From Crocinitomicaceae bacterium (GTDB lineage: Bacteria; Bacteroidota; Bacteroidia; Flavobacteriales_D; Crocinitomicaceae), in contig JAMLHA010000002.1 of the NCBI GenBank assembly GCA_023957475.1, positions 32,465 to 96,464 on the forward strand: a stretch of 64,000 nt of DNA. The letters run 5' to 3'. The notes below the pieces were generated by a model, which was not told the DNA's origin, made no database searches, and saw nothing but the letters and a program-made list of their open reading frames with translations. Positions within the stretch are counted from its first letter, which is position 1. Every line of letters starts with the position of its first letter. Below, in pieces: positions 7,776 to 17,588 of this stretch. Made by a program: the position numbers and the translations under genes.

Positions 7776-8726
7776 ATGTTGGATAGAGAACTAGCTTTGG
7801 GAATAGATATTGGCGGTACTAATACAGTATTTGCTATTGTAGATAGTGAAGGAAACATTCATTTCGAAAAATCGATTAAAACGAAAGATTTTAAGCAACC
7901 AGAGGATTTGGTGAATGAAATATACAACCAGTTACAAAAAAACTCATTGCTTCAAAATATTATTGGAATAGGTGTTGGAGCTCCCAATGGGAATCCTTTT
8001 AATGGAAATATTGAGTTTGCACCAAATTTACCTTGGAAAGGAATAATACCCTTGGCTTCAATCATTGAAAAAAAGTTTAATAAAAGCTGTAAAGTAGATA
8101 ATGATGCCAATATTGCTGCTTTAGGAGAAATGAAATTTGGAGTGGCCAGAGGGTTAAAAAATTTCGTTACCATTACATTAGGTACAGGATTGGGAAGTGG
8201 AATAGTTGTTGATGGAAGAGTGGTATATGGAGAAAATGGCTTTGCAGGTGAGTACGGACATATTCGAGTAGAGAAGGAGGGACGAGTATGCGGTTGTGGT
8301 AGAAAAGGGTGCTTAGAAACCTATGTTTCTGCAACAGGTGTAGTGAGAAGTATTCGTGAGCATGACTCAAAAAACCAAGCAAGTTCTATCTTACAAACAA
8401 TTGCTCATCCAACTAGTTTAGATGTTGTAAATGCAGCTAAGGATGGCGATAAGTTTGCAACAGAAATATTGGATTTCACAGCAAAAACATTAGGAGAATC
8501 TTTAGCAGATTTTATGTGTTTTTCCAACCCCAAAGCTTTTGTATTGTTTGGAGGTTTGGCAAAAATTGGAACAAGTTTCGCCGAAAATGTAGAAAAATAC
8601 ATGAATGATGCGGCTTTAAATATTTATAAAGGCAAAGCAAAAGTTTTAGTTTCTGATTTACACGATAAAAATGTAGCGCTTTTAGGAGCTGCGGCCTTGG
8701 TGTTTCACGAACTGAAATATTCTTAG
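7776..8726 (+). CDS. ROK family sugar kinase (glucokinase-like)
   Basis: GIDIGGT, NDANIAALGE, TLGTGLGSG, GEYGH, CGCGRKGCLE. Confidence 0.92.
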   Translation: MLDRELALGIDIGGTNTVFAIVDSEGNIHFEKSIKTKDFKQPEDLVNEIYNQLQKNSLLQNIIGIGVGAPNGNPFNGNIEFAPNLPWKGIIPLASIIEKKFNKSCKVDNDANIAALGEMKFGVARGLKNFVTITLGTGLGSGIVVDGRVVYGENGFAGEYGHIRVEKEGRVCGCGRKGCLETYVSATGVVRSIREHDSKNQASSILQTIAHPTSLDVVNAAKDGDKFATEILDFTAKTLGESLADFMCFSNPKAFVLFGGLAKIGTSFAENVEKYMNDAALNIYKGKAKVLVSDLHDKNVALLGAAALVFHELKYS

Positions 8727-10963
8727 TTGATTTGCTTTTTTCATGCTTTGTTTTTTAAAGGAATGAAAGAGATCGCTTCGCTTGTTCAATAATTTAAAAA
8801 GTTCTTTAAATTTACAGTCATAAACAACAGTTAAATTTTTTAAACTCTTTAATCCTACGTTGTGATTTGCTTTCAATAATTTAAAAAGTTCTTTAAATTT
8901 ACAGTCATAAACAACTGGATCAATTCCTTGTAGTTTGCCATTTACGTTGTGATTTGCTTTCAATAATTTAAAAAGTTCTTTAAATTTACAGTCATAAACA
9001 ACGTCTGCTGTTGTATTTGTTTACGAAAATGGGTTGTGATTTGCTTTCAATAATTTAAAAAGTTCTTTAAATTTACAGTCATAAACAACTTTTTCATCTT
9101 GTTCCAATTTCTCATTTGAGTTGTGATTTGCTTTTTTCATGCTTTGTTTTTTAAAGGAATGAAAGAGATCGCTTCGCTTGTTCAATAATTTAAAAAGTTC
9201 TTTAAATTTACAGTCATAAACAACATATATTCAGCATCTTCACAACTACATTTTGTTGTGATTTGCTTTCAATAATTTAAAAAGTTCTTTAAATTTACAG
9301 TCATAAACAACGTTTGTTTGTGGTGATTCATGGCATACTGTGTTGTGATTTGCTTTCAATAATTTAAAAAGTTCTTTAAATTTACAGTCATAAACAACGC
9401 GTTAATTTCAGCTTGCGAACAAACACCAGTTGTGATTTGCTTTCAATAATTTAAAAAGTTCTTTAAATTTACAGTCATAAACAACATTATAAAGATGTTC
9501 GTATAATGAGCCTACGTTGTGATTTGCTTTCAATAATTTAAAAAGTTCTTTAAATTTACAGTCATAAACAACGATTTGCGCGAAAAAATGGGCTTAAAAT
9601 CAGTTGTGATTTGCTTTCAATAATTTAAAAAGTTCTTTAAATTTACAGTCATAAACAACTGTTTGTAAATGACACAACAGACAACTACGTTGTGATTTGC
9701 TTTCAATAATTTAAAAAGTTCTTTAAATTTACAGTCATAAACAACTTCAATGATTGCTTTTCGTGAGATGAAGCAGTTGTGATTTGCTTTCAATAATTTA
9801 AAAAGTTCTTTAAATTTACAGTCATAAACAACAAATTCTATCAAGACGATTGGTTTGAGTTTGTTGTGATTTGCTTTCAATAATTTAAAAAGTTCTTTAA
9901 ATTTACAGTCATAAACAACAATAATAACTTACTTTCACACCTTTACGATGTTGTGATTTGCTTTCAATAATTTAAAAAGTTCTTTAAATTTACAGTCATA
10001 AACAACTGGCTTTCAATCAACCCCTAACCGACAGGTGTTGTGATTTGCTTTCAATAATTTAAAAAGTTCTTTAAATTTACAGTCATAAACAACCTCCTCC
10101 TTTTTTCAAGTACATTAAAAACTGTTGTGATTTGCTTTCAATAATTTAAAAAGTTCTTTAAATTTACAGTCATAAACAACATTTTCAACGCCTTTGTTTT
10201 CAGATTTAGTGTTGTGATTTGCTTTCAATAATTTAAAAAGTTCTTTAAATTTACAGTCATAAACAACTAATCGTAACCGTGTGACGTAACTCTTTGTGTT
10301 GTGATTTGCTTTCAATAATTTAAAAAGTTCTTTAAATTTACAGTCATAAACAACATATCCTTTGCTATTTTATTTATAGCTAGTGTTGTGATTTGCTTTC
10401 AATAATTTAAAAAGTTCTTTAAATTTACAGTCATAAACAACTAAAGGAACTGTTATAGCATGGCAGTTCCTTGTTGTGATTTGCTTTCAATAATTTAAAA
10501 AGTTCTTTAAATTTACAGTCATAAACAACGCATCGAATGGATAATCCTTTCTTTCGCCTGTTGTGATTTGCTTTCAATAATTTAAAAAGTTCTTTAAATT
10601 TACAGTCATAAACAACATAGAAATGGCACGATTGCAAGCCGAAGCAGTTGTGATTTGCTTTCAATAATTTAAAAAGTTCTTTAAATTTACAGTCATAAAC
10701 AACCTGTTCATTTATTCATCAATGGCAAAATGGTTGTGATTTGCTTTCAATAATTTAAAAAGTTCTTTAAATTTACAGTCATAAACAACTTCCTTTTGCA
10801 CTTCGTTTTCGTTGGCTACGTTGTGATTTGCTTTCAATAATTTAAAAAGTTCTTTAAATTTACAGTCATAAACAACCTTAAAAATAAAGAAAATGTCAAA
10901 AGAATTGTTGTGATTTGCTTTCAATAATTTAAAAAGTTCTTTAAATTTACAGTCATAAACAAC
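8726..10963 (+). CRISPR. Type II-C CRISPR array, 25 repeats / 24 spacers
   Basis: 23 identical 57-nt repeats GTTGTGATTTGCTTTCAATAATTTAAAAAGTTCTTTAAATTTACAGTCATAAACAAC plus long variants at 8726-8828 and 9120-9224; spacers 30 nt (two of 29, one of 31). + orientation inferred from tracrRNA complementarity and the downstream terminator. Confidence 0.97.
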
Positions 10964-10998
10964 GTCAGGTGGTTGTAAGTCAGTGTTTATAAGAGATT

Positions 10999-11043
10999 GA
11001 GTTCTATTGTTCAGAAAACGAAAAATAGAACTCTTTTCTTTTT
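10999..11043 (+). terminator. Intrinsic terminator in the array leader (ends the + strand pre-crRNA)
   Basis: GAGTTCTATT/AATAGAACTC 10-bp stem followed by TTTTCTTTTTTT on the + strand only. Confidence 0.7.
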
Positions 11044-11072
11044 TTAGAACTGTAATTGTACAAAAATCAAAT

Positions 11073-11411
11073 TCAAAACAAGGTCAATTGTTGAGGTGGA
11101 GGAGTGGTTGCTTCGGGTTTTTTTCCGTAAAAAATTTCCATGTTGCCAAATTGTTTGTCTGTAATCGAAAAAACACCAACTTTTCCTTTATCAGGCAATA
11201 TCCGCTTGACATATTTTTTGTGTACGTCTGCATTTTCCACACTCTGGCAAAATCGCATGTAAATGGAAAACTGAAACATCATAAAACCACTTTCTAGTAA
11301 TTTTTTCCGAAACTGAGAGGCTTCTTTGCGTTCTTTCTTTGTTTCGGTCGGTAAATCAAATAATACAAATACCCACATTGTTCTGTATGCGTTAAATCGT
11401 GAATTATCCAT
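11073..11411 (-). CDS. cas2: CRISPR-associated endonuclease Cas2
   Basis: [25 protein letters not shown]; ATG at 11411 preferred over the TTG at 11426. Confidence 0.95.
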
Positions 11412-11418
11412 AAACGTG

Positions 11419-12309
11419 TTATTCAAATATAGGATAAGGAATTTTGCGAACTTCTTGGGAAAAACAACGGTTCAATCCTGCTGTTGTTGAACTTACAGCA
11501 TGAAACAAGGGGCGTGTCATTTTACCTATATTGACATCCAATTGCGGAAGTTTTAAAAGTTCTATTTTTTGCTCTTTTGTTAATTCGTCTGTTTTTTCCT
11601 TTTGAATCATTTGAAAAACAATCCAATCAACAAAAGGACGATACGGTTCCATAATATCATCGGCTAAACAAAATGCGTTGTATTGATTTTTGTGAAAAAG
11701 CCCAAATGATGGATGTAAGCCCGATGCTGTCAAAGCGCGAGCAACAATAGATCGCAATATGGCATAACCATAATTGAGTTGCGAATTGGGTGTGTTTCGT
11801 TCTTGTGATCGTATAAAATCTGTTCCATACAGTTGATTCCAGTAATGCCCTGCCGCTTGTCCCTCACAATTAGTGCTGTCATCACTGAGAACCTGTTCTC
11901 TCAACACATACAAACGCTGACTGTTGAGGTTTAATTTGTCCAATAGTAAAGCTTGATTGTGAATTTTAGCTTTGACAGTTTGTTGCCACAGTTGCTTTTT
12001 GAGTGGCGCACTTGCTTCCACTTGCGTTTTCATTACTTTGGTTTGTAATGTATTTGCATCAAAAGGAAGAAATAGACCGCTTGGCATGTAGTTTTTATCA
12101 CATGAAACCAATGCGATGTTTTCACTCATAAAAGCTTCTAAAACAGCCGTAGTTAGTGTGATTTGTGGATTTTCCAAAACAACCATTCCCAAATCCATGA
12201 TAGGAACGGAATGTTTGGTTCTGCTATCATCTTTGAGTTCTACTATAAGTTGGTTGTTTTGAACGCTCAGATGAGCAGGATTGCTGAAGTGAAGAGTGCG
12301 TTTTACCAT
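11419..12309 (-). CDS. cas1: Type II CRISPR-associated endonuclease Cas1
   Basis: [36 protein letters not shown]; no cas4 or csn2 in locus, so II-C. Confidence 0.96.
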
Positions 12310-12312
12310 TGT

Positions 12313-12339
12313 AAATAGTTTAACGTTTGTAAACTATTT
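12313..12339. promoter_or_regulatory. 10-bp inverted repeat directly upstream of the cas1 start
   Basis: AAATAGTTTA-N7-TAAACTATTT, 3 nt from the ATG. Confidence 0.5.
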
Positions 12340-12370
12340 TACCGGTATTAAATGAAAAGGTTACGTTTTC

Positions 12371-12799
12371 TTATTGATTTTTAATGAGTTGAACAGTTTG
12401 TTGGAGTTCGTCTAATCGTTTTTGATTGATAGAATAACCTTGTACTAAAACATCTTTTAGTTTTTGAGTTGCCCATTGACGAAATTGAGTACCTCGTTTT
12501 GAGTTAATTCGATAGCCAACAGATAAGATGGCGTCTAAATTGTACAATTTTACCTTTCTGTTTACTATGCGTTTTCCTTCTTTTTGAACTAACGAGGAAT
12601 ACTCGGTAGTTGCATTTTCTTCTAACTCTTCTTCTCTATATATATTTTTTAGATGCAAGCTTATAGTATCTGTGTCTTTATCGAATAACTCTGCCATCTG
12701 CTTTTGAGTGAGCCAAATCGTTTCTCTATCTAAATTCACTTGAATTTCTGTTCCCGTTTGAGTTTTATATATTTTTATTTCTTTTCCTCTTTTTTGCAT
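12371..12799 (-). CDS. RhuM-family protein, N-terminal DNA-binding-like domain only (142 aa)
   Basis: ETIWLTQKQMAELF, YNLDAILSVGYRINSKRGTQFRQWAT; ends shortly after, no Fic/Doc domain. Confidence 0.82.
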   Translation of the reverse strand: MQKRGKEIKIYKTQTGTEIQVNLDRETIWLTQKQMAELFDKDTDTISLHLKNIYREEELEENATTEYSSLVQKEGKRIVNRKVKLYNLDAILSVGYRINSKRGTQFRQWATQKLKDVLVQGYSINQKRLDELQQTVQLIKNQ

Positions 12800-12804
12800 A
12801 AGTC

Positions 12805-13104
12805 TTAGTTTACTCGGTAGCTGACTGATAATATAGCATCTAAATTGTAGTATTCAACCTGTTTAGTTTGTGTTTTCCTCTGTATAGCACCATGTTGAGT
12901 GGTATGTGCATTTTTTGCACATACCACTTTTTCTTCTAATTCTTCCGTTTTGAAAATGTTATTTATATGTTTGGTAATCAAAGTTCTATCTCGCTGAAAT
13001 AAATCTGCAATTTGTTGTTGGGTTAACCAAAAGGTTTCATTATCAAATTTCATATTAATTTGAGTTTGATTGTCGGAAGTCTGGTAGATGATGATTTTGT
13101 TCAT
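12805..13104 (-). CDS. Second, shorter RhuM-family paralog (99 aa), possibly pseudogenized
   Basis: ETFWLTQQQIADLF, YYNLDAILSVSYRVN then stop in the middle of the conserved YRVNS..TQFR motif. Confidence 0.72.
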   Translation of the reverse strand: MNKIIIYQTSDNQTQINMKFDNETFWLTQQQIADLFQRDRTLITKHINNIFKTEELEEKVVCAKNAHTTQHGAIQRKTQTKQVEYYNLDAILSVSYRVN

Positions 13105-13107
13105 TAA

Positions 13108-16100
13108 TTATGCTCTTGAGATGTTGCCTAATCTATCAACTTTGAGTTTGATGCAAATTTCTTTTTCTGAAGTAAATTCAATCTTATTCAATTGAGTAAA
13201 TTCTGTTTTATTCACAATAGCTGTAGAAACTGATTGTGGAATGCCATATAATCGTCCTCCCGTAAAACTCACAACTTTATAAATATTCTTAATACCTATT
13301 TCAGCATCATTCCCACTTGGCACATACACCAAATCATTCGGCGAAAGGCTGAACAACAAACGATGACCTTTTTCATTCAACTCAGGAACAGATGTCAAAC
13401 CTTGTTTTTGTCGTTCGATAACCACATTCAAAGGAATGGTGTCATAACTGCGTTTTCCGTCTTTGTCGGCGTAGATTCCGAAAAACAGATTCGTGCCTTT
13501 TGCCGCCTCTACATATTTTTCTGTTTTGTTGCCTGTTTCTCCTAATGCAAACTTACTTCCTTGTTCAAAAACCCTCACTTTCAGAATCGGCTGATGTTGT
13601 TTTCCGTCGTTATACAAAGTGATGCTTTGGTTCATTTCTTCGATTCCTTCGGGTGAAAATGCGATTTCAGGATTACCACCTTTTACTTTTAAATAATTCA
13701 ATAAAATTTTCTGAATTCCAGTGTCGGTAATCGAAGAAATTAATTTTTCGTTGAAAGAACTATCTAAACTTTTTCTTGTTGCGGTTAGAATTTTCCCTTT
13801 GGCAACTTTTATTCTGTCTAATTGCACTTTTCCCGAAACGGTTTCTTTATGCAACGGTTTCCTAATCGCCCAATTTGTTCCTTCTTGTTTTACAATTCCT
13901 TTTACTTTTTCGCCGTTTTTCTCGACATATTTTTCGTAATAATTGGTTGCTTTGTTGATGACACGAGTATTTTGTTTGAAACTTACCACGATACTTTCCA
14001 AAGCCTTTTTGGCATCGACAGTAAAGTTGTTCCAAGGTTTTAAAAAGTCTTTAAACGCTGTTTTTTCTTTTCCGTCTTTATCTCGATACGTTTCTTGTAT
14101 TCTCAATTTATGTTGTAAATCGTAGCGTTTCAAATCAGATTTTGCAGATTCGTTATTCAACAAATTAATGTGGTCACGAGTAGCGCACGCAATCACCAGA
14201 GCGTCCATTGCATGATGGCGATGGTCAATTCTTTTCTTTGAAAAACCTTTTGACAATTCAAGCGGAACAGTCGGTAAAAACTTCTGGTATTTTTCGTTCC
14301 AAGTTGTAAAATCAGTTGAATTGGTTAATTGATTCATTCGTTCAAAACGTGGTAAAATCAATTCGTTCCAAACTGCTTCTAATCCCCAGTCTAGTTTTAA
14401 ACGTGTGGTGATTTTCCCATTTCCAGGAAGTAAATTTTTAGAATTGTACCCATCATCGTTGCTTCCGTCTTTATCATCACGCACAATATTTGACAACAAG
14501 TTTGAAACATATTTGCTGATGTAACGTGTATCGTTCATTTGACGCTCAACCATTTTTTCAGGAATTTCTTCCATCAATAATTTGTTTCGTTTCGCACGAT
14601 TTTTAGCATAATGTTCTTTTACAAATTCTTCGTAATCCGCTATTTCAAGTATCTGAACAGCTTTGTTTCCAATGGTAACTTTTTCTCCGTGATGATTTTT
14701 GATGAATTCAAAACCAAGCTGTCTATCTTTCAGTTTGTTAACTTCAGCTTCACAAATCACTTTATTGTTAAATCCATCATCAAAAAATCGACTTTGTGGA
14801 ATGATATGTTCAATCTCATATTCGTGCGTAAAGAGCTTATTTAATGGAATGATTTGCCCTGTATAAGGTGATTTGTATTTTTGTTCTAACCAAAGTTTGT
14901 AGCGTTTTAAATCAGCACTTGAAGGTTGTGCCGTTTTGCTGATTTTAAGAATATCCTCATCAATTTCGGCTTCGGAACTCAATGCACCGTCTTCATAAAT
15001 TTTCAAAATTTCTTGTTGCATTGGCGAGTATGGACGAACATTTTCCACATTACTATCTAGAGCCATTTCTGCTAACAAAGCTTTAATGCGCAAATTGGTA
15101 TTTTCGTTTTCGGTAACCATGTTGGTTAACCTTTTTCGTTCATCAGCCGTATTTTTCATTTCACGACCTAATTCAATATGAATTTCAGAGAAGAAATCTT
15201 TAGCTCCGTTGCCATATTTGATCCAAATATCCTTTACTACACGTAATGTTTCTGTGATTACTTGCTCCACAATTGGGTTTCGTAAAGAGTGTTGTTTGAA
15301 CTCATTTAAAAAATCTTCCAAATCCTTAACTGAATTCCATTTGCCTGAAACAGATGCTTCGGAATGACGACCGTAAACAATGTATTGAGCCAACCACAAC
15401 GGCAATCCTTGGAAATCATTTTCAGATTTCAGATGATACTTTTCTGCTTTTTCACGGATTTTATTTTTGATGTTTTCATCGTATTCGCCTGTGATGATTT
15501 TCCCAATTCGGTCTTTTGAGCTTGTGTGAATTTCATTCCAATCCCAAGATTTCCCGAAACGCATCAAGGGTAACAATTTCTTAATTGCTTTTTCTGAAAA
15601 ACTGCCGTAATCACTTTTGAAAGGTGGAAATTTCTTGAAATTATCAAAGAAAGAATCTACATTCAGTTGATTTTTTTCTGCAAATTTCTTTAATGCTTTT
15701 TCGTATTCAATTTTATCATTTACAGAATAGATAATATGCCACAATGCCATTTCTTTATCAAAAGTCAAGAAATCCGCAGGAACATTCTCGGTTTTATCCA
15801 ATCTTGATTGAATTAAATATCTCGTTTCGTTGCACGGATAGGTTTTATCTTCCACATAATTCCAGCGGTATTTTTCGGTTTCCGCTTTCGGAACTTTCTT
15901 GATTTCTAATTTTCTTTTGAGCAAAAATTCGATTAATTGCTTTTGGTCAATTTCTTTTTTAGTATTCAAAAAATGCAATAATTCCTCCCAATCATTTTGA
16001 TTCGGCAAAAATTCATTGGTAACATTTACATCATCATCTTTTCGGTAAATAGCGAGATTTTGCATCCATTGCAATAACCTAAATTCCTGATAATAAGGAT

Positions 16101-17400
16101 TTGATTTTGAAACAACTTTTATAGGAAAAACAATACCCTCTTTTGATTTTCTACTCTCTAAGGAACAATTTGAAATGGAAGATTTTTGGCTACGCAAAGG
16201 TCGCTGATAAAAGATAATGTCATTCAAAAACAAATGCACAAAATCTTTCGCAGAAAGCAATTGCTGGTGTTGTTCATTGTTTCGATACAATTCTCGAACG
16301 CAATCCATTAACAAATTTTCATCTTGCAATTCCGAATGAAATTCTTTTTGTTTGGTAAGAATTTTAAAGAGTTCGTCTTTGTAAAATTTACGTTCAATCG
16401 TACGAACCAATTTTCCTTTTATTTTTTGTTTTGGATTTAATAAAAGGTTGTCGAAAATGTATGTCCCGACTGTTTTATTAGAGTTGCTAATATCTTTTTC
16501 TGATTTCTTTTTCAACAAAGTCCAATCATCAGCACTTGGTGCTCGAAAACTTCTTTTTACGCTTCCTTCTTTGTCTAATTTCTCCGTTCCGTCATCATTC
16601 AAATCGGTCGTAACAATAAATTCTTTGACTTTATCTTTCCAATCAAACAACTCCGTTTTACTTGAACGACGGTAAATCCAACCGTTTTCCAAATGCATTG
16701 AATACCAAGTCTCTCCTTTATTATTTTTAGTTTCATCCGCAACAACTTCAACCACTTTCAAAGAATGAAATTCTACTAATTTGTTCGGGTTTTCTTCTTC
16801 CTCCTCTCCACGCAATTGATAATAACCACGTTTCTGATTAAAATTCAGAATAATCCACGCCAATTCTTCTTTTTCAATTTTTTGAGTCAATGCTTTTTTA
16901 CGTAAATAGTAAATCGTCCAATCGTGAGGAATTAAACAATCATTGCCATTTTTATCTTTCAGAAATTCAGGTTGATATTCCTTAAAATCTTCCAACATTT
17001 CATAAAAAGAAGATTGAAACAAAAATCCATTTTGGGAATAAGCTAATTTAGGTTCTGTTTCAGGAATAAATTTTCCAAAGCGTTTGTCAAAATCAATTTG
17101 AGTATCATAATGTTCTGGCAAAAAACCTAACAAATGTAATACTCTGTGCAAACGCTCTCTTCTCAATAAATGGCGTTCTCTTAATCTACGAGTACCTCTG
17201 TACCCAGTACGTTCTGCTGTTTGAGAAACTGAATTTCCTTTGTCAAAGTCGCCCATAATCGCCGCATCCATCGGAATAATTCGACTTCCCATGCCGAGTA
17301 TCTCGCCTTGTTTATTTTCAAAGTCTTGTTGAACAAGTGCCCATCCTATCGAATTCGTTCCCAAATCCAATCCAAGTATTGTTTTATTTGTGTTTTCCAT
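13108..17400 (-). CDS. cas9: Type II-C Cas9 (large Bacteroidota type, 1430 aa)
   Basis: RuvC-I ILGLDLGTNSIGWA, Arg-rich bridge helix, HNH EIEHIIPQS...NKVIC, RuvC-III DHRHHAMDA; catalytic residues look intact. Confidence 0.97.
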   Translation of the reverse strand: MENTNKTILGLDLGTNSIGWALVQQDFENKQGEILGMGSRIIPMDAAIMGDFDKGNSVSQTAERTGYRGTRRLRERHLLRRERLHRVLHLLGFLPEHYDTQIDFDKRFGKFIPETEPKLAYSQNGFLFQSSFYEMLEDFKEYQPEFLKDKNGNDCLIPHDWTIYYLRKKALTQKIEKEELAWIILNFNQKRGYYQLRGEEEEENPNKLVEFHSLKVVEVVADETKNNKGETWYSMHLENGWIYRRSSKTELFDWKDKVKEFIVTTDLNDDGTEKLDKEGSVKRSFRAPSADDWTLLKKKSEKDISNSNKTVGTYIFDNLLLNPKQKIKGKLVRTIERKFYKDELFKILTKQKEFHSELQDENLLMDCVRELYRNNEQHQQLLSAKDFVHLFLNDIIFYQRPLRSQKSSISNCSLESRKSKEGIVFPIKVVSKSNPYYQEFRLLQWMQNLAIYRKDDDVNVTNEFLPNQNDWEELLHFLNTKKEIDQKQLIEFLLKRKLEIKKVPKAETEKYRWNYVEDKTYPCNETRYLIQSRLDKTENVPADFLTFDKEMALWHIIYSVNDKIEYEKALKKFAEKNQLNVDSFFDNFKKFPPFKSDYGSFSEKAIKKLLPLMRFGKSWDWNEIHTSSKDRIGKIITGEYDENIKNKIREKAEKYHLKSENDFQGLPLWLAQYIVYGRHSEASVSGKWNSVKDLEDFLNEFKQHSLRNPIVEQVITETLRVVKDIWIKYGNGAKDFFSEIHIELGREMKNTADERKRLTNMVTENENTNLRIKALLAEMALDSNVENVRPYSPMQQEILKIYEDGALSSEAEIDEDILKISKTAQPSSADLKRYKLWLEQKYKSPYTGQIIPLNKLFTHEYEIEHIIPQSRFFDDGFNNKVICEAEVNKLKDRQLGFEFIKNHHGEKVTIGNKAVQILEIADYEEFVKEHYAKNRAKRNKLLMEEIPEKMVERQMNDTRYISKYVSNLLSNIVRDDKDGSNDDGYNSKNLLPGNGKITTRLKLDWGLEAVWNELILPRFERMNQLTNSTDFTTWNEKYQKFLPTVPLELSKGFSKKRIDHRHHAMDALVIACATRDHINLLNNESAKSDLKRYDLQHKLRIQETYRDKDGKEKTAFKDFLKPWNNFTVDAKKALESIVVSFKQNTRVINKATNYYEKYVEKNGEKVKGIVKQEGTNWAIRKPLHKETVSGKVQLDRIKVAKGKILTATRKSLDSSFNEKLISSITDTGIQKILLNYLKVKGGNPEIAFSPEGIEEMNQSITLYNDGKQHQPILKVRVFEQGSKFALGETGNKTEKYVEAAKGTNLFFGIYADKDGKRSYDTIPLNVVIERQKQGLTSVPELNEKGHRLLFSLSPNDLVYVPSGNDAEIGIKNIYKVVSFTGGRLYGIPQSVSTAIVNKTEFTQLNKIEFTSEKEICIKLKVDRLGNISRA

Positions 17401-17495: not shown

Positions 17496-17503
17496 TATAT
17501 TTG
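17496..17503 (+). promoter_or_regulatory. Bacteroidota -7 promoter box for tracrRNA
   Basis: TATATTTG matches TAnnTTTG just upstream of the anti-repeat. Confidence 0.7.
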
Positions 17504-17505
17504 AA

Positions 17506-17588
17506 TATTGAAAGCAAATCACAATAAGGATTATTCCGTTGTGAAAACATTTGGGTTGCCTCTTGTCCACAATCAGGAGGTTTTTTTA
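17506..17588 (+). ncRNA. tracrRNA
   Basis: TATTGAAAGCAAATCACAA is the reverse complement of repeat nt 2-20; followed by TAAGGATTATTCCGTTGTGAAAAC nexus-like segment and a CCTCTTG/CAGGAGG hairpin with T7 tract. Confidence 0.9.

Follow-up and report, generated by a model that had tools for sequence, protein, structure and literature searches.

The question raised by this locus is how a type II-C CRISPR-Cas9 system came to carry a repeat of 57 nucleotides (nt), and which parts of such a repeat its machinery needs. The locus lies in a 64,000-nt stretch of DNA (hereafter the window) from a Crocinitomicaceae bacterium (GenBank assembly GCA_023957475.1, contig JAMLHA010000002.1, positions 32,465 to 96,464 of the forward strand). 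Three machines act on a repeat of this type, namely Cas9 together with its trans-activating CRISPR RNA (tracrRNA), RNA polymerase at a putative promoter embedded in the repeat, and the Cas1-Cas2 integrase; variants that differ in length only within a linker reveal the parts that each machine needs. The array is real and intact and belongs to a Cas9-type II-C system. Its 57-nt unit was judged, with good confidence, to be a linker-expanded version of the 'extra-large' II-C repeat, in which a handle would be followed by a neutral linker and a -7 box promoter, and in which an insertion would have been tolerated and copied.

Array structure and repeat anatomy

The initial annotation had placed the array at 8859-10963, where it does lie, but its true start is near 8724 and one of its units measures 105 nt. 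With the terminal repeat near 8724 and the insert-bearing repeat at 9120-9224 counted, an explicit parse therefore gave 25 repeats and 24 spacers, the spacers all different and 29-31 nt in length (mostly 30). The proposed 57-nt repeat, GTTGTGATTTGCTTTCAATAATTTAAAAAGTTCTTTAAATTTACAGTCATAAACAAC, was confirmed in 23 perfect copies, and a period of 86-88 was obtained by repeat finding and Tandem Repeats Finder. Repeat nt 1-20 occur 23 times on the + strand and once, as an anti-repeat, on the opposite strand (chance expectation 0.03); no other array with a GTTGTGATTTGCTTTCAATAATTTAAAAAGTTCTTTAAATTTACAGTCATAAACAAC-type repeat was found in the 3.14-Mb genome. Because the 23 identical copies flank unique spacers, the entire 57 nt are copied per acquisition.

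Across 18 aligned repeats of the family, nt 1-17 were invariant but for two variable positions, TA..TTT was invariant, and the variation in length fell wholly in the linker between this handle and TA..TTT. Linker length rises from 3-6 nt in 47-mers to 13-16 nt in 56-58-mers (about 16 nt in the window repeat) and 25-26 nt in 69-mers; in the window repeat the handle GTTGTGATTTGCTTTCAATA occupies nt 1-17/20, the box TAAATTTA occupies nt 36-43 and a 14-nt tail ending in ACAAC follows. The 47-nt repeat of a sister lineage reads …CAA-GTTCCT-TATTTTTAC…, and at the same place the window repeat reads …CAA-TAATTTAAAAA-GTTCTT-TAAATTTAC…. Read from this alignment, the 57-mer corresponds to an ordinary 47-nt repeat plus about 10-11 A/T-rich linker bases, roughly TAATTTAAAAA.

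The handle (nt 1-17/20) would serve Cas9 and tracrRNA, pairing with an anti-repeat of ~19-20 nt located right at the 5' terminus of a tracrRNA that is predicted to be transcribed divergently from cas9; the single mismatch puts repeat nt 1 opposite U (a G-U wobble). Nine related loci with 47-, 50-, 56- and 58-nt repeats have the same tracrRNA layout, with a 16-20-nt anti-repeat, a TAnnTTTG box 5-12 nt upstream of it and an invariant core. The earlier observation that only nt 1-20 pair with tracrRNA thus holds, but it is not special to the long repeat, the nine relatives (47-nt repeats included) being alike. As predicted from these genes, a ~20-bp tracrRNA duplex is the family norm, and the tracrRNA cannot reach further into any such repeat.

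The TAnnTTT box is a candidate for a repeat-embedded Bacteroidota -7 promoter that would drive transcription of the spacer following each copy, on the + strand and in the direction of the cas genes. A set of 98 distinct II-C repeats from Bacteroidota contained TAnnTTT in 69 cases, where shuffled sequences would give 13. The box ended 15-18 nt before the repeat 3' end in 64 of these 69, whatever the repeat length, and it started at nt 23-26 in 46-47-mers, nt 26-27 in 50-51-mers and nt 35-36 in 56-58-mers. Given this fixed distance to the 3' end, the motif is anchored to the downstream spacer, as a repeat-embedded promoter needs. Since the tracrRNA lies on the + strand, the sense strand of the CRISPR RNA (crRNA) would also be +, with the array read toward the cas genes. 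In the II-C systems studied so far, crRNAs come from promoters inside the repeats and run antisense to the cas operon; the conserved position of the box and the strand indicated by tracrRNA make such transcription a prediction for the window array.

Repeat-embedded crRNA promoters were reportedly found in the II-C system of Neisseria meningitidis by Zhang et al. in 2013 and in that of Campylobacter jejuni by Dugar et al. in 2013. They are also described for Flavobacterium columnare and F. psychrophilum, and in Flavobacterium II-C arrays transcription runs toward the variable end (PMC10309648). The window array resembles embedded-promoter arrays in the position of the box in the 3' half of the repeat, in a predicted crRNA sense toward the cas genes and in a tracrRNA with its own putative promoter. 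It differs in that its box is a Bacteroidota -7 element rather than an extended -10, with activity suggested by conservation, and in that the insertion alters how far the box stands from the upstream TTG elements.

In the proposed sequence of events, the leader-proximal repeat of an ancestor would have gained an insertion of about one helical turn. The linker would be free of length-critical contact with Cas9 or tracrRNA, and apparently with Cas1-Cas2, and for that reason the insertion could be tolerated and thereafter copied into every new repeat.

Several points weigh against this account. The box TAAATTTA differs from the consensus TAnnTTTG, although an A follows TTT in 25 of the 69 boxes. 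The TTG at nt 2-4 is 31 nt from the box here, as against about 20 nt in 47-mers, the TTG at nt 9-11 is 24 nt away rather than 13 nt, and neither stands at the canonical 19-21-nt spacing; with the spacing changed in this way, the promoter could be weakened or altered, and its strength may differ from that of 47-mers. The neutrality of the insertion is, moreover, assumed. Finally, a set of protospacers with a protospacer adjacent motif (PAM) was sought as a check on orientation and none was derived, because the two 3' flanks disagree. The whole array was compared with 50,697 phage records by BLAST, with chance-level matches only, and three IMG/VR scans with the newest spacers returned one 24/30 match, in a 263-kb contig. 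Spacer 21 (window 10617-10646) has a 28/30 match within the same genome at C1:193861-193889, possibly an imperfect self-target or a mobile-element remnant.

Repeat length among relatives

Loci encoding relatives of the window Cas1 (80 loci, species-representative genomes) were searched using a simple array finder. Repeats of 45-48 nt with 30-nt spacers were found in ~60 related Bacteroidota arrays and 36-nt repeats in two arrays, and beside these the 57-nt repeat is unusually long, as had been proposed. Additionally, 401 Crocinitomicaceae genomes (family assigned by locus titles) were scanned for the conserved 5' handle recurring with a period of at least 80. Such arrays were found in 7 of the 401 genomes, that of the window included, and arrays of normal period in 35. 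Long repeats were uniform in G074 (72 identical 56-nt repeats; locus L138, G074:C69) and G151 (23 identical 58-nt repeats); G085 (L120) has 56-nt repeats, G026 has 20 repeats of 50 nt, and in G115 (L123/L124) and G378 (L125) sporadic 69-nt repeats occur within 47-nt arrays. In genomes from the same genus as the window, repeats are 47 nt long. The 69-nt form also occurs in L200 and L205, interleaved with normal repeats and with unique spacers around it; in all of these loci (L123/L124, L125, L200, L205) it carries a 22-nt GC-rich linker insert, ACCTACGGTGCTGCTACGCGGT or AACTGCGTTGCTGCTTCGCGGT.

Metagenomes were scanned with a similar handle-period pattern; the matches listed give no frequency. 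Among the matches listed, many arrays were uniform at 49-51 nt and one at 62 nt (L191); 73-nt repeats stood alongside 46-nt ones in L165 and L193, and in several arrays the terminal repeat alone bears a GC-rich hairpin insert (L169, L176, L209, L197). The 62-nt repeats (L191, 1330-1800) have a perfect hairpin, TCCCGA-ATAGCTA-TCGGGA, inserted between the handle and the TATCTTTG box. In L165, L193, L169, L176, L209 and L197 the GC-rich palindromic inserts measure ~27-30 nt; several split TATC|TTTG exactly, and they are often restricted to the cas-distal (old) end or the terminal repeat. Across the long repeats as a whole the extra bases lie mostly in the linker, with some hairpin inserts inside the box.

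The Bacteroidetes II-C 'extra large' repeat class is described as 44-50 nt (PMC4869251). Repeats of 46 bp are reported for F. psychrophilum (PMC10309648), and 47-nt repeats for Capnocytophaga canimorsus, Riemerella anatipestifer and Weeksella virosa (PMC4869251, PMC10309648). No 57-nt CRISPR repeat, and no II-C repeat above 50 nt, was found in the literature searchable. By alignment the window repeat belongs with this class, having a 5' handle GTTGTGAnTnGCTTTCA, 30-nt spacers, TAnnTTT at a fixed 3' distance and an ACAAC-type end; the locus likewise has a large Cas9, only Cas1 and Cas2 beside it, and an array downstream of cas2. It departs from the class in length, since 57 nt (in 23 of the 25 copies) is 7 nt over the described bound, and in the extra 10-11 nt of its linker.

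The length is accordingly not unique. Long repeats of 50, 56, 58, 62, 69 and 73 nt occur in relatives and metagenomes, and relatives with 56-58 nt exist even though most have 45-48 nt. The 57-nt repeat is uncommon and apparently undescribed, and it sits within a continuum of 45-73 nt rather than as a lone outlier.

The default maximum repeat length is 47 in MinCED and 55 in CRISPRCasFinder, and PILER-CR allows 64. The default of CRT is 38 (PMC5570325), and CRISPRDetect sets no fixed upper limit (PMC4869251). The suggestion that such arrays are systematically missed is therefore true of some tools and not of all; repeats above 47-55 nt fall outside some of these defaults, so Bacteroidota loci may be missed or mis-delimited.

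Origin of the extra bases and tolerance by the integrase

Repeat length was mapped onto a maximum-likelihood tree of Cas1. The window groups with G085 (56 nt; support 100/99), then with G074 (56 nt; 96/78) and then with L001 (100/99), and the clade of window, G085 and G074 is nested inside a group of Crocinitomicaceae whose other members have 47-nt repeats. G151 (58 nt) forms a separate branch and G026 (50 nt) lies far away, such that long repeats occur in several separate lineages. From these positions and the GC-rich 69-nt form, it follows that repeat expansions arose at least three times independently. The closest Cas9 relative, L001 (89% identical), is on a contig that ends at the first repeat; no array with a period of at least 80 nt was found in its metagenome-assembled genome, in a search that did not cover 47-nt-type arrays.

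The repeat tracks the adaptation module, given that G074 has a similar Cas1 (74% identical to that of the window), Cas2 (78%) and repeat type but a distant Cas9, 26% identical over the main tblastn alignment and up to 37% over the nuclease region. The pattern suggests a swap of the effector module in G074 beside an adaptation-plus-array module that stayed conserved; with its universally conserved handle, the repeat can be used by different Cas9/tracrRNA pairs. The tracrRNA core of G074 (L138) is identical to that of the window despite the distant clade of its Cas9.

Alignment of the long-repeat clade's Cas1 and Cas2 with their counterparts from 47-nt loci shows no notable indels, and the window leader is homologous to the leaders of both 47-nt and 56-58-nt repeat loci. 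Together with the constant 30-nt spacers, this points to an integrase that tolerates extra linker length. Repeats of 47, 50, 56-58 and 62 nt, all with 30-nt spacers, are maintained by homologous Cas1-Cas2 modules (58-90% identity), and single arrays mix 46-47-nt with 69-73-nt repeats. With mixed lengths under homologous Cas1-Cas2, the second cut site would come from the distal end and not from a fixed ruler; the integrase probably locates the repeat's far end through its inverted repeat (GTTGT…ACAAC). These observations hint that the spacer-inserting enzymes are not strict on repeat length. The natural series of 47, 50, 56-58, 62 and 69-73 nt makes it testable whether II-C integrases use a ruler or read the far end, and it also bears on how repeat-embedded promoters cope with repeat length. 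A further, tentative generalization, judged less likely than not, is that the central part of the repeat in Bacteroidota II-C systems serves as an open 'cargo slot', the integrase reading the distal ..ACAAC; in this lineage the insertion of about one helical turn would then also have re-phased the promoter against its upstream TTG elements and changed crRNA output.

The window repeat contains a palindrome, AATTTAAA-AAGTTC-TTTAAATT (8 bp, repeat nt 20-41), which the initial annotation had singled out. It is unlikely that the extra bases are a functional hairpin (AATTTAAA/TTTAAATT) acting in RNA processing or attenuation, as a cruciform or operator over the promoter, or in recognition by Cas1-Cas2. 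The palindrome is perfect, recurs in all 25 repeats, forms part of the minimum-free-energy fold and overlaps the TAnnTTT box, and other long II-C repeats have hairpin inserts near or inside the box (L191, 62 nt; L165 and L193, 73 nt). The energy of the repeat fold (-6.1 kcal/mol, z = -0.45) was, however, equalled in 57 of 200 shuffles, an all-A/U stem of 8 bp would be marginal at physiological temperature, and of the 56-nt repeats in the same Cas1 clade that of G074 is without the helix and that of G085 has a different one of 5 bp. The hairpin is thus present, but neither significant nor conserved, and owing to its shuffled-level energy and its absence from G074 and G085 it was treated as incidental.

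The palindromic inserts of other loci raise the question of whether the added segment could be the decayed footprint of a mobile palindrome, resembling a repetitive extragenic palindromic (REP) sequence or a miniature inverted-repeat transposable element (MITE), that became fixed in the leader-proximal repeat. Palindromic, GC-rich inserts (22-30 nt) lie in or close to this region of the repeat in G115, G378, L165, L193, L169, L176, L209 and L197, and the terminal and internal repeats of the window bear a 48-nt insert. The 69- and 73-nt hairpin repeats (L165, L193, G115, G378) share with the window repeat mid-repeat additions that spare nt 1-17 and are flanked by unique spacers. Their additions are GC-rich palindromes of 22-27 nt, present in some repeats only, often at the old end, and in some cases splitting TAnnTTTG, whereas the window addition is A/T-rich, 10-11 nt long, upstream of the box and array-wide. 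Such bases are too short for a complete element, are uniform in all repeats and show ordinary sequence homology with G074 and G085; no terminal inverted repeats or target duplications were seen, and the 3.14-Mb genome contains the 48-nt insert nowhere else. A GC-rich palindrome confined to some repeats and with multiple genome copies, the pattern looked for in a mobile REP-like element, was not what was found, and a mobile origin was regarded as improbable. A tolerated expansion of the linker remains the preferred reading of the added bases.

The 48-nt insert, TTTCATGCTTTGTTTTTTAAAGGAATGAAAGAGATCGCTTCGCTTGT, follows repeat nt 15 and is identical in the two repeats that bear it; a search of the 3.14-Mb genome gave no copy outside the array. 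The internal insert-bearing repeat stands four spacers inward from the cas-distal terminal repeat. In G085 (L120), whose Cas9 is 93% identical to that of the window, the terminal repeat bears a homologous insert of 55 nt in the same position. That a repeat of the 'terminal' kind also stands inside the array points to a past recombination event or to two arrays having fused. A role of the insert as an anti-repeat mimic was lightly tested; its predicted pairing with the 5' part of the repeat scored z = -0.38 and is missing from the homologous insert of G085, and this reading is not supported.

This rearranged old end, with its duplicated insert-bearing repeats, and spacers without convincing phage targets would also suit an array that is a relic no longer acquiring, in which case the 57-nt repeat would be uninformative on Cas1-Cas2 tolerance. 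That is very improbable. For 23 identical 57-nt repeats to flank 24 unique spacers, the long form must itself have undergone about 20 duplications or more; the open reading frames (ORFs) of cas9, cas1 and cas2 are intact, with full domain matches, and uniform long repeats recur in relatives (72 identical 56-nt repeats in G074 and 23 58-nt repeats in G151).

The cas locus and feature coordinates

Positions and strands of the array, cas genes and tracrRNA gene are provided in the table below.

Table. Features of the II-C locus (window coordinates)
Feature	Position	Strand	Basis or match
CRISPR array, whole	8724-10963	+	Repeat finding, Tandem Repeats Finder, explicit parse
Array main body: 23 identical 57-nt repeats and one 105-nt repeat, spacers 2-24	8859..10963	+	
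Terminal cas-distal repeat R*: degenerate 5' end, 48-nt insert, intact 42-nt 3' part	8724..8828	+	
Internal 105-nt repeat: 57-nt repeat with 48-nt insert after nt 15	9120..9224	+	
Leader between cas2 and first repeat, with inverted repeat AGTTCTATT..AATAGAACT	10964..11072	-	
cas2, 117 amino acids (aa)	11073..11426	-	Pfam CRISPR_Cas2, E = 3.8e-17
cas1, 296 aa	11419..12309	-	Pfam Cas_Cas1, E = 1.2e-33
Short RhuM-N-terminal-like ORFs of 142 aa and 99 aa, placed between cas9 and cas1	12371..13104	-	Pfam Virulence_RhuM
cas9, 1430 aa	13108..17400	-	Pfam RuvC_III, HNH_4, Cas9-BH
Putative tracrRNA gene, upstream of cas9	17496..17588	+	Box, anti-repeat, core and terminator read from sequence
Putative Bacteroidota -7 box TATATTTG of tracrRNA gene	17496-17503	+	
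Anti-repeat of tracrRNA	17506-17525	+	19/20 match to repeat nt 1-20
tracrRNA core AAGGATTATTCCGTTGTGAAAACATT	between anti-repeat and terminator	+	
Terminator hairpin of tracrRNA, then T7	17558-17581	+	

Cas9 has both nuclease domains, RuvC (RuvC_III, 5e-62) and HNH (HNH_4, 1e-18), together with a bridge helix (8e-10) in Pfam, and cas1 and cas2 are the only adaptation genes. Neither csn2 (II-A) nor cas4 (II-B) is among the ORFs at 11073-17400, and the locus is therefore of type II-C, in agreement with the initial annotation. A tracrRNA with an anti-repeat to the 5' part of the repeat and a terminator hairpin was predicted as well. An Rfam search of the window at gathering thresholds gave tRNAs and nothing else, neither a tracrRNA nor a crRNA family being matched. 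Taken together, these are the features of a functional-looking type II-C CRISPR-Cas9 system of a Crocinitomicaceae bacterium. Window Cas1 is 90% identical to that of G085, the two sharing long repeats with G074, and 70% identical to that of Taishania, which has 47-nt repeats.

Cas9 matches CbCas9 (PDB 8IYQ) over its full length (2029 bits, residues 6-1428). The Chryseobacterium system from which CbCas9 comes (PDB 8IYQ, 8WR4; Zhang et al. 2024 Nature, cited in PMC13153721) is likewise II-C, with a full-length homologue of the window Cas9 and accessory genes inside the cas operon. In the window the accessory genes are the RhuM-N-terminal-like ORFs, whereas that of CbCas9 is the PIN-domain protein PcrIIC1, which is unrelated.

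The RhuM-like ORFs matched Virulence_RhuM with E = 2e-24 and 1.9e-5, the second below the curated cut-off, and had no match among PDB sequences. They are accessory and stand outside the repeat question; a tie between them and long repeats was ruled out, because G074 (56 nt) is without them and the 47-nt Taishania locus keeps a remnant. A homologue is present in G085, and the remnant in Taishania (L002) measures 32 aa. The neighbours of the locus are ROK kinase and DEAD-box helicase genes.

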